A stretch of 24,000 nucleotides of DNA from Anabaena sp. 4-3 (GTDB taxonomy: Bacteria; Cyanobacteriota; Cyanobacteriia; Cyanobacteriales; Nostocaceae), in NCBI RefSeq assembly GCF_001597745.1, contig NZ_LUHJ01000050.1, positions 136,697 to 160,696 of the forward strand, in the 5' to 3' direction. Positions 11,644 through 21,967 of the stretch are shown piece after piece (position 1 is the first letter of the stretch; every line of letters begins with the position of its first letter). The notes under the pieces were generated by a model, which had not been told where the DNA came from, did not search any database, and was given only the letters and a program-made list of their open reading frames with translations. The translations under genes and the position numbers were made by a program.

Positions 11644-11660
11644 TGCTTAGTTTTTACTTA
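11644..11660 (-). promoter_or_regulatory. 6-5-6 direct-repeat motif, recombinase-distal copy in the nifK element
   Basis: The minus strand reads TAAGTA-AAAAC-TAAGCA. A 63-nt gap separates it from the core at 11574..11580. It forms a 23-nt near-repeat (GGCNTTGCTTAGTTTTTNCTTAA) with 13458..13481. Confidence 0.45.
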
Positions 11661-11992
11661 ACTCTTTGAAATCTCCCCTTAATTTTTCAAGCAAAAAAGT
11701 AAATTTATTTCTTAGTTTTTGGTTAAATCTGGAGATATTTTCTACTGCAAAATAATATATTAACTATAACGGTTAAAATAACTTCTTTTCTTCCATATTT
11801 ACCGGAATAAGCTAACTAATTACTTATATAAAGTTATACATTTTACACCCATGAACAGTCAAAAAAGTTTAGTTTTTTCATAAAATAAGGTTGAATTTAA
11901 AAACGGTATCTAATGTACTTACTTTGTTATATTTTAGTGGTAATATTTGATAATTTTTAATCATCTACACAAAGATGTCATGCACAACATTA

Positions 11993-12019
11993 CAAAAAAA
12001 AGGGGGCTAACTACCCCTT
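11993..12019 (-). terminator. Rho-independent terminator of the nifK-element recombinase gene
   Basis: The minus strand reads AAGGGG-loop-CCCCTT followed by T8, about 20 nt after the stop codon at 12039. Confidence 0.6.
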
Positions 12020-12038
12020 CTAGCGTAATGCAATTGAT

Positions 12039-13463
12039 TTAGTTAGATAGAGCTTGCTTTATTTGGTGTTCTGTCAACATTAACATTAATTTTTCTAGTT
12101 CACTTTTGAGTCTTGCTACTTCGGTTTTTAACATGATATTTTCTTCTTTTAGTTCATCCATTTCATCCTTTTTATTTACCGCTTGTTTAATCGCTTGCTT
12201 TCTATGTTCGATACTAAACCATTTTTGGTAAGTGTCTGTGTGTTGCTCTATTGTATGCCCTAAATTATCAGCCGCAGCTTTCAGAGGTACACCCATTAAA
12301 TGCGCTCGAATTGCCCAAGCATGACGCAAATCGTAAGGACGGAATCCGACTTTTACTTTTTGAAACCAATCAGATATAGCTTGAACTAAGGTATTCCTAC
12401 CCTGTAAATCACATCTACCATTAATGTATTTTTCGACTAAATTAATAATTTCAGGGTTTCGTAATTCAAATAATTCCACCCAATTTTCATGTAATGGGAT
12501 GACTTCTCTAAAACCTGTTTTACATTCCCCGTAAACTTTCCATCTAAAATCGGTATTATCTTGACTTAGCCAATACTTGAAATCTGGATTTAAAATTACC
12601 TCATGCGGTCGGCATCCATAAGCAGCAATCATGCCATAAATCCATCTAAACACTAACCAATTATCTGCTTGTTCCTTTCTTTTATTTCGTCGGTTTTTAG
12701 CGTATTCTTCCCATTTTAAAAAACTTGTTTCAATGTCTGTATCGCTTGGGATGTCACGCCGTTCTGTTTGAGGTCTTTGGAACTTTACTTTTAAAGGAAT
12801 ATCAAAAGTTTTAGTAAATAAGTTTAAGGTGATCGCAGTCCTGTGCTTCCATTGTCCTATATCATTAGGTATGGCATCAAATTGTTTTTTTAAATTTTCT
12901 GGAGTTGCCAGCATTTCCCTATCAAACTGCTTCAGCACTTTCATGTAATTTGCAAAAGTACCTTCTGAGCCGATATTCCTTTGTCTTTCTGAAAAATACA
13001 ATCCTTCATATTGCTCTAATAGTTCTCCAAAAGTTTTGTTTTCTTTATCCTGTTTTTTACCTAAATACTTATCAGTCCATTCAAAAGTTTGACGAGCAAT
13101 TAATTTACTCAGTTCGTGAGCTTCTTCTGTCGCAGTTTTCAGCCCGTGTAGATTAGCAGGAATTCCTAACGATATTTTATATTGCTTTTTTCCCTTACCT
13201 GTTTTGTCAATATCTCCTGGTTTTAATGGCAGCGTTGCCTGTAACTGAAGCGCGTTCCCGGTTCTGATAATACTTACCCGTGCTTTGTCAGCTTTCAATC
13301 TAGTGTTAGCTTCCTCAAGCTTCAGTTTAAGCTGTTCTTCACTCTTGGCTGTTTGTTTGAGTACGTGCTTCATAGTTCCCATGTATGTCCCGTCTGTAGT
13401 GGCTTTAAATTCTTTATCGACGGTAGAAGCGTTGTAATCCCTGTGCAGTCTAGTTTTTGGCAT
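12039..13463 (-). CDS. XisA-family site-specific tyrosine recombinase (nifK element)
   Basis: 474 aa and a paralog of the two other recombinases in the window. Shared blocks include LQLQATLPLKPGD, LHGLKTATEEAHELSKLIARQTFEWTDKYLG, WIYGMIAAYGCRPHE, YDLRHAWAIRAHLMGVPLKAAADNLGH (H-x-x-R box) and HTDTYQKWF (candidate catalytic Tyr). A C-terminal coiled coil is present. Confidence 0.9.
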   Translation of the reverse strand: MPKTRLHRDYNASTVDKEFKATTDGTYMGTMKHVLKQTAKSEEQLKLKLEEANTRLKADKARVSIIRTGNALQLQATLPLKPGDIDKTGKGKKQYKISLGIPANLHGLKTATEEAHELSKLIARQTFEWTDKYLGKKQDKENKTFGELLEQYEGLYFSERQRNIGSEGTFANYMKVLKQFDREMLATPENLKKQFDAIPNDIGQWKHRTAITLNLFTKTFDIPLKVKFQRPQTERRDIPSDTDIETSFLKWEEYAKNRRNKRKEQADNWLVFRWIYGMIAAYGCRPHEVILNPDFKYWLSQDNTDFRWKVYGECKTGFREVIPLHENWVELFELRNPEIINLVEKYINGRCDLQGRNTLVQAISDWFQKVKVGFRPYDLRHAWAIRAHLMGVPLKAAADNLGHTIEQHTDTYQKWFSIEHRKQAIKQAVNKKDEMDELKEENIMLKTEVARLKSELEKLMLMLTEHQIKQALSN

Positions 13464-13480
13464 TGCTTAGTTTTTGCTTA
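13464..13480 (-). promoter_or_regulatory. 6-5-6 direct-repeat motif abutting the recombinase ATG (nifK element)
   Basis: The minus strand reads TAAGCA-AAAAC-TAAGCA immediately followed by ATG. A further related unit (CCAAAAACTAGACT) lies within the first codons. Confidence 0.45.
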
Positions 13481-13604
13481 AATATCATGAAACAACCTCA
13501 GCCAAAATACATCTGTTCAGGAGAAGCAGTTTAGCTGTGGCTCTTGCAACTAGGTATTTCGGTGGTTTTAAGATACCATGATTCATCTCTGATAACCCAA
13601 TTTT

Positions 13605-13611
13605 TCACCAA
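13605..13611. repeat. nifK-element core direct repeat, right copy (TCACCAA)
   Basis: Identical 7-mer at the point where the N-terminal NifK reading frame diverges from the NifK sequence. Confidence 0.8.
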
Positions 13612-19823: not shown

Positions 19824-19840
19824 TAAGCTAAAAATAGACT
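19824..19840 (+). promoter_or_regulatory. 6-5-6 direct-repeat motif, recombinase-distal copy in the nifD element
   Basis: TAAGCT-AAAAA-TAGACT matches 14/17 positions of the xisA-proximal TAGGCT-AAATA-TAGGCT. A 62-nt gap separates it from the right core at 19903. Confidence 0.4.
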
Positions 19841-19902
19841 CATTTTTCTCCCCCTACCAAAAAACCTTACCTTACCTGACATTTGCACCCTGTCACCAAG
19901 TT

Positions 19903-19911
19903 CGGAGTAAT
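19903..19911. repeat. nifD-element core direct repeat, right copy (CGGAGTAAT)
   Basis: It lies at the point where the NifD N-terminal frame (…HSWDYS) leaves the NifD sequence. Confidence 0.9.
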
Positions 19912-21265
19912 CCCAAGAGTGCATTTGACGGAAGGGAAGACCCATCTTTTGGAAGACGTACTTCTCTTTAATACCAGAAGCGATTAAATCAGGCTTCTTA
20001 GCTTTAACGAATTCCTCGAATTCGTAAGCGGTAACGTCATCATAAATGATGGTGGCGTTATCGATGTAGTGGGTGGTACGTTTGTAGTCGTCGTTGTGAG
20101 CAAACTCGTAACCAGTACCAAGAACTTTGATACCCAAGTCTTCAAAAGCGGGAACAACGTGACGAGGACGTAGACCACCTACGTACAACATTACGGTGTT
20201 GCCTTCGAGACGAGGACGGTACTTCTCAACCACGGCGTTCATGATTGGAGTGTACTTAGCAATTACCTTCTCGGCGTTTTCTTGAATCTTAGAGTCAAAT
20301 TTAGCAGCGACTTGACGTAAAGATTCAGCAATCTTGGTGGGGCCGAAGAAGTTGAACTCCATCCAAGGCATACCATAAGCTTCTTCCAAGCTACGGCAGA
20401 TGTAGTTCATAGAACGGTAGCAGTGGATCAGAACCAACTTAGCAGCAGGCCCTTGGATCAACTCGTTGAGAGTACCGTCACCAGACCACTGAGCAACAAC
20501 ACGTAAGCCGATTTCTTCCAACAGCATCCGGCTAGCCCAAGCGTCACCACCGATATTGTAGTCACCAATTAATGCTACATCATAGGGGCTTGGCTCGAAG
20601 TCAATTTTGTTTTCCTTCTTAGCCTTGTCAAAGTGAGGGAAGATCCAGTCACGGATAGCGTCGTTAGCAATGTGGTGACCTAAAGATTGGGATACACCAC
20701 GGAAACCTTCGCAACGCAGGGGGATAACTGGCTTACCAATTTGTTTAGAAGCTTTCTTAGCAACAGCTTCGATGTCATCCCCGATTAGACCGATGGGACA
20801 TTCAGATTGAATGGAAATACCACGGTTGAGAGGGAAAAGAACGTCGATTTCTTCGATCAGTTTAGTTAGTTTTTTGTCACCACCAAAAACGATGTCGCGT
20901 TCTTGGAAGTCGGAAGTGAAGTGCATGGTACCGAAAGAGTCGATACCAGTTGAACCTACATAGTAGTTACGACGACCAGACCAAGACCAGTAACCGCAAC
21001 CTACAGGCCCGTGGCTGATGTGGATCATGTCCTTAATAGGACCCCAAACCACACCCTTAGAACCTGCGTAAGCACAACCACGAGCGGTCATTACACCAGG
21101 AACGGATTTGATGTTAGACTTAACGCCGCAGTCAGACTTACCTTCTTCGTGTACATTCAGGTGTTTTTCGCGTTTTTTGCGAGATTTTTCGGGATAAGCT
21201 TTCAGAACGTCTTGGATGAGTTCCTTATGTTCTTCTACAAGATTCTTGTTTTCTGGAGGTGTCAT
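19903..21265 (-). CDS. nifD: nitrogenase MoFe protein alpha chain NifD, N-terminal 454-codon segment (gene interrupted)
   Basis: [27 protein letters not shown]...[46 protein letters not shown]... is NifD. After ...[10 protein letters not shown] the ORF reads 26 element-encoded codons and stops at 19823. Confidence 0.95.
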
Positions 21266-21398
21266 AGTCTGCCTCAGTGACTTTTACGAATGGAAAATAA
21301 AAGGATATAGGGAGAGGGGAGAGGGATGGGAAGGGAGAGTGGGAAGGGGAATTACTTCCTCAACTTCCTTTCTCCATGTCTCCTAATTACGGTATGAC

Positions 21399-21859
21399 CT
21401 ATTTAGCAGCTGCGGGCTTACCAATGACATCAGCGTGCTTGGTATCGTCATCAAGGATACCGTATTCGATCAACAGGGCTTCCAATTCATCCATTTCCAA
21501 TGGAGTAGGAATGGTGAGTTTTTGGTTGTTGATGATCTTCTTAGCTAATGCGCGGTATTCGTGAGCTTGGTTGCTGTCAGGAGCGTACTCGTTAACGGTC
21601 ATACGACGCAATTCTGCGTGTTGAACGATGTTGTCACGAGGTACGAAGTGAATCATTTGGGTGTTCAAACGTTCAGCCAAGTTTTCGATCAATTCAGCTT
21701 CACGGTCAACTTTACGGCTGTTACAGATCAAACCACCCAAGCGTACACCACCGGAGTGAGCATATTTCAAAATACCGCGAGCGATGTTGTTTGCAGCGTA
21801 CATCGCCATCATTTCACCAGAGGTAACGATGTAGATTTCTTGTGCTTTACCTTCACGAA
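21399..21859 (-). CDS. nifH: nitrogenase iron protein NifH, C-terminal segment (gene interrupted; N-terminal part outside the window)
   Basis: The frame reads [53 protein letters not shown]... to the stop at 21399, roughly the last 150 of ~295 NifH residues. Upstream of the Arg codon (21855..21857) the sequence becomes AT-rich non-NifH DNA. Confidence 0.92.
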
Positions 21860-21950
21860 AAAGAGCAATAATATTATTATTTTAACCTATAAATGTTCAA
21901 TTTAAACAATGTTTGCTGTCATCATTGTCAATGATGAACAGTATTTTTAT

Positions 21951-21967
21951 TAGGGTAAATCTAGGGT
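21951..21967 (+). promoter_or_regulatory. 6-5-6 direct-repeat motif abutting the recombinase ATG (nifH element)
   Basis: TAGGGT-AAATC-TAGGGT immediately followed by the ATG at 21968, ~92 nt inside the nifH junction. Confidence 0.45.

Follow-up and report, generated by a model that had tools for sequence, protein, structure and literature searches.

A stretch of 24,000 nt from Anabaena sp. 4-3 (contig NZ_LUHJ01000050.1, positions 136,697 to 160,696), here called the window, contains on its minus strand the genes nifK, nifD and nifH, each interrupted by an element that bears a gene for a XisA-family tyrosine recombinase. Near the start codon of each recombinase gene lies a hexamer that is repeated in direct orientation after a 5-nt spacer, forming a 6-5-6 pair, and in the nifK and nifD elements a second pair is found towards the opposite end. 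These repeats are probably arm-type (accessory) binding sites of the XisA-family recombinases, which would then be heterobivalent enzymes, recognizing the arm hexamers in addition to the short direct repeat (core) at the element junctions. A preliminary description of this DNA had proposed arm-type sites, an autoregulatory operator, or both. The arm-type proposal is supported by conservation throughout the family, by a fixed offset of the far pair, by matching hexamers at the two ends of an element and by covariation with recombinase residue 74; the near pair may in addition act as an operator or -10 box.

The pairs of the window are listed in Table 1. Direct reading of the sequence verified the coordinates, sequences and gaps reported earlier for all five motif copies. 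At the two ends of the nifK element, 22 of 24 nt are common to both surroundings of the pair (11638-11661 and 13458-13481). The proximal pair of the nifH element is 93 nt from CCTTCACG, which equals 91-92 nt to the junction. Perfect 6-N5-6 repeats of any hexamer occur at seven places in the 24 kb, three of which abut recombinase start codons. When the window was scanned with the same-hexamer pattern TARRNN-N5-TARRNN, as the preliminary description had suggested, three occurrences were observed against 0.43 expected from first-order Markov simulations, an excess of about 7-fold. For the 1.3 kb of non-coding element ends the expectation was 0.077 pairs, and none of 4000 simulations reached three. 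The loose pattern TARR-N7-TARR, which does not require hexamer identity, was not enriched in the window (17 observed, 19.5 expected), and the signal therefore resides in the identity of the hexamers and in their position. The distal copy of the nifD element has no significance in the window when taken alone; its support comes from orthologous elements.

Loci of relatives from the Nostocales, 79 genomic and 79 metagenomic (individual loci are given below as L numbers), were compared with the window. A well-placed start codon was present in 84 distinct upstream regions, in which the repeat was sought within 45 nt of the ATG. Orthologous elements had been predicted to keep the motif, and it was found in 80 of these regions, as a perfect 6-N5-6 repeat in 67 and with one mismatch in 13. 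The corresponding rate of perfect repeats is 1.6% in random 45-mers of the same loci and 2.5% in AT-rich 45-mers. At least ten hexamer classes could be distinguished (TAGGCT, TAGGGT, TAAGCA, TAAGAC, TAAGCC, TAAGTC, TAGGGA, TAGTCA, TAAGGC and TAATGT/TAAGGT), which track the recombinase subfamilies and share the frame TARGNN-AAAWN-TARGNN, located 0-15 nt 5' of an intact ATG. The claim that the hexamer co-varies with the element under a constant architecture was thus upheld. Nostoc loci that seemed to be without the motif had misassigned starts, and the pair was present upstream at its usual distance from the core.

Among 62 distinct orthologous ends of nifD elements, the near pair is the best-conserved block. 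Of 61 distinct near ends of the nifD-449 insertion class, 26 either have lost the canonical ATG or have one that opens an open reading frame (ORF) of no more than 14 codons; there the recombinase ORF begins more than 100 nt further on, often past heptamer-repeat insertions. In these 26 ends the pair is intact at 90-91 nt from the core, which indicates that it is tied to the core and not to the translation start.

For the analysis of the far pair, element junctions were located by matching the NifD, NifK and NifH pieces, and element ends were aligned on the core. An automatic longest-common-substring core finder gave false pairs and random offsets at several loci, and gene-validated junctions were used instead. 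In five gene-validated insertion classes (nifD-449, nifD-300, nifK, nifH-143 and nifH-26), which differ in both core and hexamers, the far pair has the orientation of the near pair and lies 60-65 nt from the core, so that the fixed offset of about 62 nt first noticed in the window was borne out. In nifD-449 (core CGGAGTAAT), 26 of 27 distinct far ends with a recognisable pair have the sequence TAGGCT-ARAAA-TAGRCT with its last base 60-65 nt from the core, among them that of the PCC 7120-type 11-kb element; this far arm is poorly conserved except for islands formed by the hexamer pair and an A-rich block. The nifD-300 far pair (TAAGAC/TAAGCC or TAATCT/TAAGCT) is about 62 nt from TACCCTG (64-65 nt from CCCTG), and the offset is 63 nt both in the nifK class (TAAGCA) and in the one nifH-26 element (TAAGTC). 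In the complete nifH-143 elements L116, L140 and L141, the near pair is TAGGGT and the far pair YAGGGC-AAAAA-TAGGGM is found 61-62 nt from the core CCTTCACGG. The near pair is 89-93 nt from the core in most classes, but 102 nt in nifH-26 (L129) and 124 nt in the nifK class. Hexamers agree between the ends of a given element and differ between classes, including the three that coexist in this genome. The pairs are located inside the element on both sides of the core and are unlike the core in sequence, as arm-type sites are.

Two further features of the arms were observed. The near-arm distances of about 91, 102 and 124 nt differ by steps of about 11 and 33 nt, and such multiples of about 11 nt suggest a kept helical phase, given that the core boundaries are uncertain by 1-2 nt. 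L116, L140 and L141 bear an extra single TAGGGT about 55-60 nt inside the far pair, and some classes have a whole extra pair in the range of about 55-67 nt; the far arm may hold more than two sites in some classes.

The structure of the recombinase was modeled with AlphaFold2 (54-sequence alignment; predicted local distance difference test, pLDDT, 85). A long helix is predicted first, followed by an N-terminal domain (N-domain) of three strands (residues 62-67, 70-78 and 91-101) and a helix (104-122), a low-confidence linker (135-141), core-binding and catalytic domains and a long C-terminal helix. The model of the isolated N-domain had a pLDDT of 91. The arm-binding domains of Tn916- and lambda-type integrases are described as N-terminal domains of three strands plus a helix (PMC8138268), and full-length lambda Int tetramer and dimer structures were among the top matches of the whole model and gave the longest alignments. 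No significant match to the isolated N-domain model was found with Foldseek in the PDB and BFVD, hhalign of the N-domain alignment gave no match to lambda Int (with an approximate lambda sequence), and a PDB profile search with the N-domain returned chance matches only. Scans of the N-terminal 150 residues against Pfam and NCBIfam revealed no arm-binding family. These domain scans were empty because two families were missing from the Pfam version used, XisAC_N (PF27551) and XisAC_2nd (PF27132), which cover XisA-family proteins in newer Pfam releases; the N-terminal region forms a family of its own, XisAC_N.

Within the N-domain the helix is near-invariant across the classes and the strands are variable. 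In strand 2, all TAG... classes have Arg at residue 74, whereas the TAA... classes have Gln, or Val in one case. This column ranks first of about 470 in the alignment for normalised mutual information with hexamer base 3. Arg-G and Gln-A are classical base-contact preferences. The Arg/TAG state occurs in at least three separate clades of a neighbour-joining tree based on the core-binding and catalytic domains only. For hexamer bases 5 and 6, the strand residues 65, 67, 69 and 95 were among the top columns, although unconvincingly. Judged by class tracking, matching ends and the covariation at residue 74, the site sequence is specific to its cognate recombinase, as that of an arm-type site is.

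This specificity also bears on the question of which protein reads the pairs. They could bind an architectural protein of the host, or else a directionality factor of the excisionase type that, like lambda Xis, recognizes tandem direct repeats. Phased direct repeats in one of the arms are the typical targets of excisionases. The frame common to all classes (TTTARG...AAA, with 11-bp phasing and an A-tract spacer) might be readable by one host protein, and the homology of the N-domain to known arm-binding domains was undetected. However, this one genome harbors three hexamer classes, and within each element the hexamers of the two ends correspond; a single host factor cannot explain such class-specific bases. 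Moreover, the nifK element of the window has no further ORF of at least 35 aa besides its recombinase gene, and the minimal elements of about 1.8-2.0 kb (this one, L030, L043, L119 and L001-L003) code for the recombinase alone, which leaves the recombinase as the sole class-specific protein to read class-specific sites. Reportedly, Lammers et al. in 1986 found xisA alone to be enough for excision in E. coli. Together with the covariation of residue 74 and base 3, these points make another reader of the hexamers unlikely.

The repeated unit extends beyond the hexamers: several pairs are accompanied by boxes of the type TGT-N9-ACA (Table 1), which resemble NtcA/VF1 sites; the consensus is said to come from Ramasubramanian in 1994. 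Further copies occur at a 16-nt period in the near arms of nifD-449 and nifH-143, and in the nifD-300 and TAGGGA classes a box is located 5-6 nt before the near pair. No TGT-N9-ACA box was found in the upstream regions of the TAAGCA and TAAGTC classes. The near-arm boxes lie between core and pair, while those of the nifD-449 far arm lie outside the pair. In that arm, a box exactly 14 nt before the pair was present in 20 of 27 distinct ends, as compared with a background of 5 × 10−4 per nt. We know of no description of this far-arm box. The preliminary description was right to recall NtcA/VF1 binding upstream of xisA, but the TGT-N9-ACA sites adjoin the hexamer pair and are distinct from it. 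NtcA binds upstream of xisA and is needed for its expression (PMC3898017).

A number of observations weigh against arm-type sites. The nifD-449 near arm is conserved along its whole length of about 125 nt, and its conservation is hence not specific to the pair. Many of the loci compared are orthologous, so that the counts overstate their independence. Some nifD-449 elements have a degenerate second far hexamer (e.g. TTAACT), and the nifD element L093 has no recognisable far pair. The covariation of Arg or Gln with G or A stands on a neighbour-joining tree with about three switches. Finally, nifD-449 and nifH-143 show the geometry of an NtcA class II promoter: their second hexamer conforms to TAN3T and begins 22 nt after a GT-N9-AC box.

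This last point favors the explanation that the near pair serves only as part of the promoter or translation start of the recombinase gene, as an operator and/or as the -10 box in a class II promoter that depends on NtcA, with the far copies as relics that have no role in recombination. The geometry is found in 34/34 TAGGCT-class and 14/17 TAGGGT-class regions, with a box one nt shorter than the canonical GTAN8TAC in both classes, it agrees with the known NtcA dependence of xisA expression, and an intact start codon is always 0-15 nt from the near pair. Yet the TAAGCA, TAAGAC, TAAGTC, TAAGCC, TAGGGA, TAGTCA and TAAGGC classes lack the T6 required by a -10 box, two of them (TAAGCA and TAAGTC) have no NtcA-like box, and both hexamers of the pair are conserved, not one. 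In nifH-143 the ATG abuts the second hexamer, so that a start site 7 nt downstream would lie inside the conserved ORF. The far pairs have no downstream gene in the element but keep their core offset of 60-65 nt in five classes, and the box-to-hexamer spacing in the far arm, 15 or 26 nt, is not promoter-like. A -10 role is therefore not the general function of the pairs, and we regard a promoter or start-site feature as their whole explanation as quite improbable. In the TAGGCT and TAGGGT classes, the near pair could plausibly have a double role and act also as an operator or -10 box. No report of a xisA transcription start site was found in the searchable literature.

That the repeats have no function, being AT-rich chance matches or inherited duplications of element ends, is very improbable: the loose pattern is unenriched, the far copy of the nifD element in the window is imperfect and the loci are phylogenetically related, but the simulations described above speak against chance, and the pair is kept across genera and across recombinase classes that are about 45% identical, with differing hexamers and the same architecture and offsets.

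Other interpretations were discarded. An iteron or replication origin was rejected given only two units per site, their location at element ends and the lack of a Rep gene, and transposon terminal repeats were rejected given that the copies are direct and not inverted. Two extra half-sites mentioned in the preliminary description gain no support from the comparison. One, TAAGCAAAAC at 19733..19742, exists, but is a nifK-class hexamer within the nifD element; the other, the TAAGCA placed at 14472, starts at 14471 and lies inside a conserved NtcA-like block, so that it is no obvious half-site.

The elements of the window are XisA-family heterocyst interruption elements. Each has a recombinase gene located at one end and short direct repeats in the nif gene, and joining at the repeats restores the ORF: when the gene pieces were joined at the cores, the reading frames of NifD and NifK were restored, and the 3' part of nifH stops at the junction. 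The three recombinases share about 45% pairwise identity and have weak Phage_integrase matches, and two of them are 100% identical to Anabaena sp. 4-3 proteins.

Table 1. Cores, hexamer pairs, NtcA-like boxes and recombinase genes of the three interruption elements in the window.
Feature	Position	Strand	Remarks
nifK-element core TCACCAA (+ strand), distal junction	11574..11580		Core joining gives in-frame NifK
nifK-element distal pair TAAGTA-AAAAC-TAAGCA	11644..11660	-	63 nt from core TCACCAA; 63-nt offset also in L002 and L003
nifK-element inner distal pair TAACCA-AAAAC-TAAGAA	11709..11725	-	Third and weaker pair, 65 nt further in than the distal pair; comparable second distal pair in L003, at 67 nt
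nifK-element XisA-family tyrosine recombinase, 474 aa	12039..13463	-	ORF; weak Phage_integrase match; 100% identical to an Anabaena sp. 4-3 integrase
nifK-element proximal pair TAAGCA-AAAAC-TAAGCA	13464..13480	-	Read directly; abuts ATG, 124 nt from core; orthologues L001 and L003 have TAAGCA-AAAAA-TAAGCA-ATG
nifK-element core TCACCAA, proximal junction	13605..13611		Second core copy
nifD-element core CGGAGTAAT, proximal junction	14419..14427		Short direct repeat
Second NtcA/VF1-like box	14478..14492	+	Read directly; 16-nt period
NtcA/VF1-like box TGT-N9-ACA	14494..14508	+	10 nt 5' of nifD proximal pair; 10-nt gap in 34/34 TAGGCT-class upstream regions
nifD-element proximal pair TAGGCT-AAATA-TAGGCT	14519..14535	+	Read directly; 91 nt from core, 12 nt before ATG; identical in PCC 7120-type locus L159
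nifD-element XisA, 472 aa	14548..15966	+	ORF; 89% identical to PCC 7120 XisA
NtcA-like box TGT-N9-ACC	19795..19809	+	Read directly; 14 nt 5' of nifD distal pair
nifD-element distal pair TAAGCT-AAAAA-TAGACT	19824..19840	+	Read directly, and orthologous distal ends; 62 nt from core CGGAGTAAT
nifD-element core CGGAGTAAT, distal junction	19903..19911		Core joining gives full NifD
nifH-element core CCTTCACG, proximal junction	21850..21857		Distal end beyond the window; orthologues L116, L140 and L141 are complete elements with core CCTTCACGG
NtcA-like box TGT-N9-ACA	21926..21940	+	10 nt 5' of nifH-element pair; 10-nt gap in 14/17 TAGGGT-class regions
nifH-element proximal pair TAGGGT-AAATC-TAGGGT	21951..21967	+	Read directly; abuts ATG; identical in at least 10 orthologous loci
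nifH-element XisA-family recombinase, 475 aa	21968..23395	+	ORF; paralogue of the other two

Some additional features of these genes and elements were recorded. The 3' end of the xisA gene in the nifD element contains three tandem 21-nt units (GGAGAATG..., window 15879-15941), which correspond to the long helix predicted at the C-terminus (residues 422-471); this helix may form a coiled coil that serves oligomerisation. In many Nostoc xisA loci (L025, L040, L048, L073, L100, L122, L133 and others), the first ~40 codons are broken by point loss of the ATG or by insertions of repeated heptamers (AATTCGT, AATTCAA); the annotated protein of 433 aa starts from an internal Met, and the TAGGCT pair and the NtcA-like boxes upstream are intact. 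The nifD element of the window also carries four copies of a ~74-nt repeat (16082-16155, 16573-16646, 17274-17347 and 19435-19508) with terminal inverted repeats GGGTGCGTCAGC...GCTGACGCACCC, which looks like a small miniature inverted-repeat transposable element or hairpin repeat family. In L065/L117 (a Rivularia metagenome-assembled genome) and L158, nifD is split further, at about aa 80, 263 and 300, into pieces that lie on both strands, and each recombinase has its own hexamer pair; this fragmentation is reminiscent of Calothrix NIES-4101, for which a scheme of excision and inversion in several steps was reported. The nifH-nifD intergenic region (window 21270-21400) contains a purine-rich run, GGGAGAGGGGAGAGGGATGGGAAGGGAGAGTGGGAAGGGG.

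If the pairs are arm-type sites, the following model can be proposed. Each arm would present one tandem pair of class-specific hexamers, as two 11-bp units that would place both hexamers on one face of the helix. The near pair would mark the recombinase side, at a distance from the core of about 91 nt or, in two classes, of 102 or 124 nt, and the far pair, at about 62 nt, the opposite side, both oriented like the recombinase gene. The N-domain (residues ~60-122) would read the hexamers, with residue 74 touching base 3, and a flexible linker would separate it from the core-binding and catalytic domains. A recombinase tetramer could in this way bridge four arm hexamers and four core half-sites and build an intasome on the attL/attR-like junctions. 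The excised circle would contain an attP-like region of about 225 bp, composed of an NtcA-like box, pair, 62 nt, core, 91 nt with NtcA-like boxes, pair and xis gene. NtcA bound at the flanking TGT-N9-ACA boxes may bend the arms. As the near pair coincides in part with the promoter or start of the recombinase gene, autoregulation or use as a -10 box may occur in some classes. A bolder version, which we offer tentatively and consider rather doubtful, is that NtcA, a 2-oxoglutarate-sensing protein of the CRP family, is also a DNA-bending architectural subunit of the excision complex through the TGT-N9-ACA boxes in both arms of nifD-type elements, so that nitrogen status would gate excision directly, and that the XisA N-domain carries a reprogrammable hexamer code in which residue 74 is Arg for G and Gln for A.

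The proposed organization resembles that of the lambda attP arm sites (P1, P2 and P'1-P'3, bound by the N-domain of lambda Int). In both systems the sites occur in both arms, tens of bp from the core and unlike it in sequence, as direct-repeat neighbours phased at about 10-11 bp, within a composite region of about 225-240 bp. Sites for DNA-bending proteins belong to such regions, and the NtcA-like boxes may be sites of this kind in the XisA elements. XisA-family proteins, like lambda Int, would have an extra N-terminal three-strand-plus-helix domain and a linker, here predicted by the model. In contrast to lambda, XisA elements mostly have one pair per arm (2+2 sites, versus 2+3), the recombinase gene starts beside the site where that of lambda ends, so that the near pair touches the start codon, no excisionase gene is present and homology of the N-domain was not detected. 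To our knowledge, no integration reaction is known for XisA elements. In P2/186/HP1-type phages, attP is located just 5' of int and the arm sites overlap the int control region. The arm sites of Tn916/Tn1549 integrases (DR2 repeats) are also direct repeats near both ends, read by an N-terminal three-strand-plus-helix domain (PMC8138268). Tn916/Tn1549 and P2-like elements undergo reversible integration and excision with a directionality factor, whereas XisA elements are domesticated, developmentally timed and excision-only in nif genes, and the sequences are unrelated.

The other known sites in this region are those of VF1/NtcA (BifA) upstream of xisA, reportedly described by Chastain et al. 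in 1990 and Ramasubramanian et al. in 1994. The TGT-N9-ACA boxes of the type found in the window, with their 16-nt period and up to three copies, fit 'three adjacent sites'. In PCC 7120, these sites (chromatin immunoprecipitation sequencing, PMC3898017) lie in the same interval of about 120 nt between the nifD junction and xisA as the near pair. The hexamer pair differs from them in being 10 nt downstream and in having another sequence.

Since 1985, the developmental excision of elements from nif genes has served as a textbook example, with the site treated as a core repeat of 5-16 bp alone. Published surveys of the interruption elements of heterocysts (Hilton et al. 2016, PMC4874684; Calothrix NIES-4101, PMC11249958) covered the same elements, recombinase family and insertion classes (nifD position 1355, nifH, nifK and others). 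The recombinase targets defined there are only the short repeats of the core, direct or inverted, and when the text of both papers was searched, no mention of accessory sites, arm sites or upstream motifs was found. Searches for arm-type sites of xisA and for the motif strings gave no relevant report in the searchable literature, although older papers may mention them. Arm-type sites are already well known as such, and their application to the XisA family, a domesticated developmental recombinase family, appears to be new.

If the XisA-family recombinases are indeed heterobivalent enzymes with arm-type sites, this would explain how paralogous recombinases (three in the window, nine in Calothrix NIES-4101) coexist without cross-reaction, and why excision is one-way. 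It would also predict that assays in vitro or in a heterologous host need a substrate of at least about 225 bp, and provide mutable targets, namely the pairs, their spacing and R74Q. The at least ten naturally orthogonal pairs of recombinase and arm site could potentially serve as tools, and the NtcA-like boxes in the arms may represent a direct link between nitrogen sensing and genome rearrangement.

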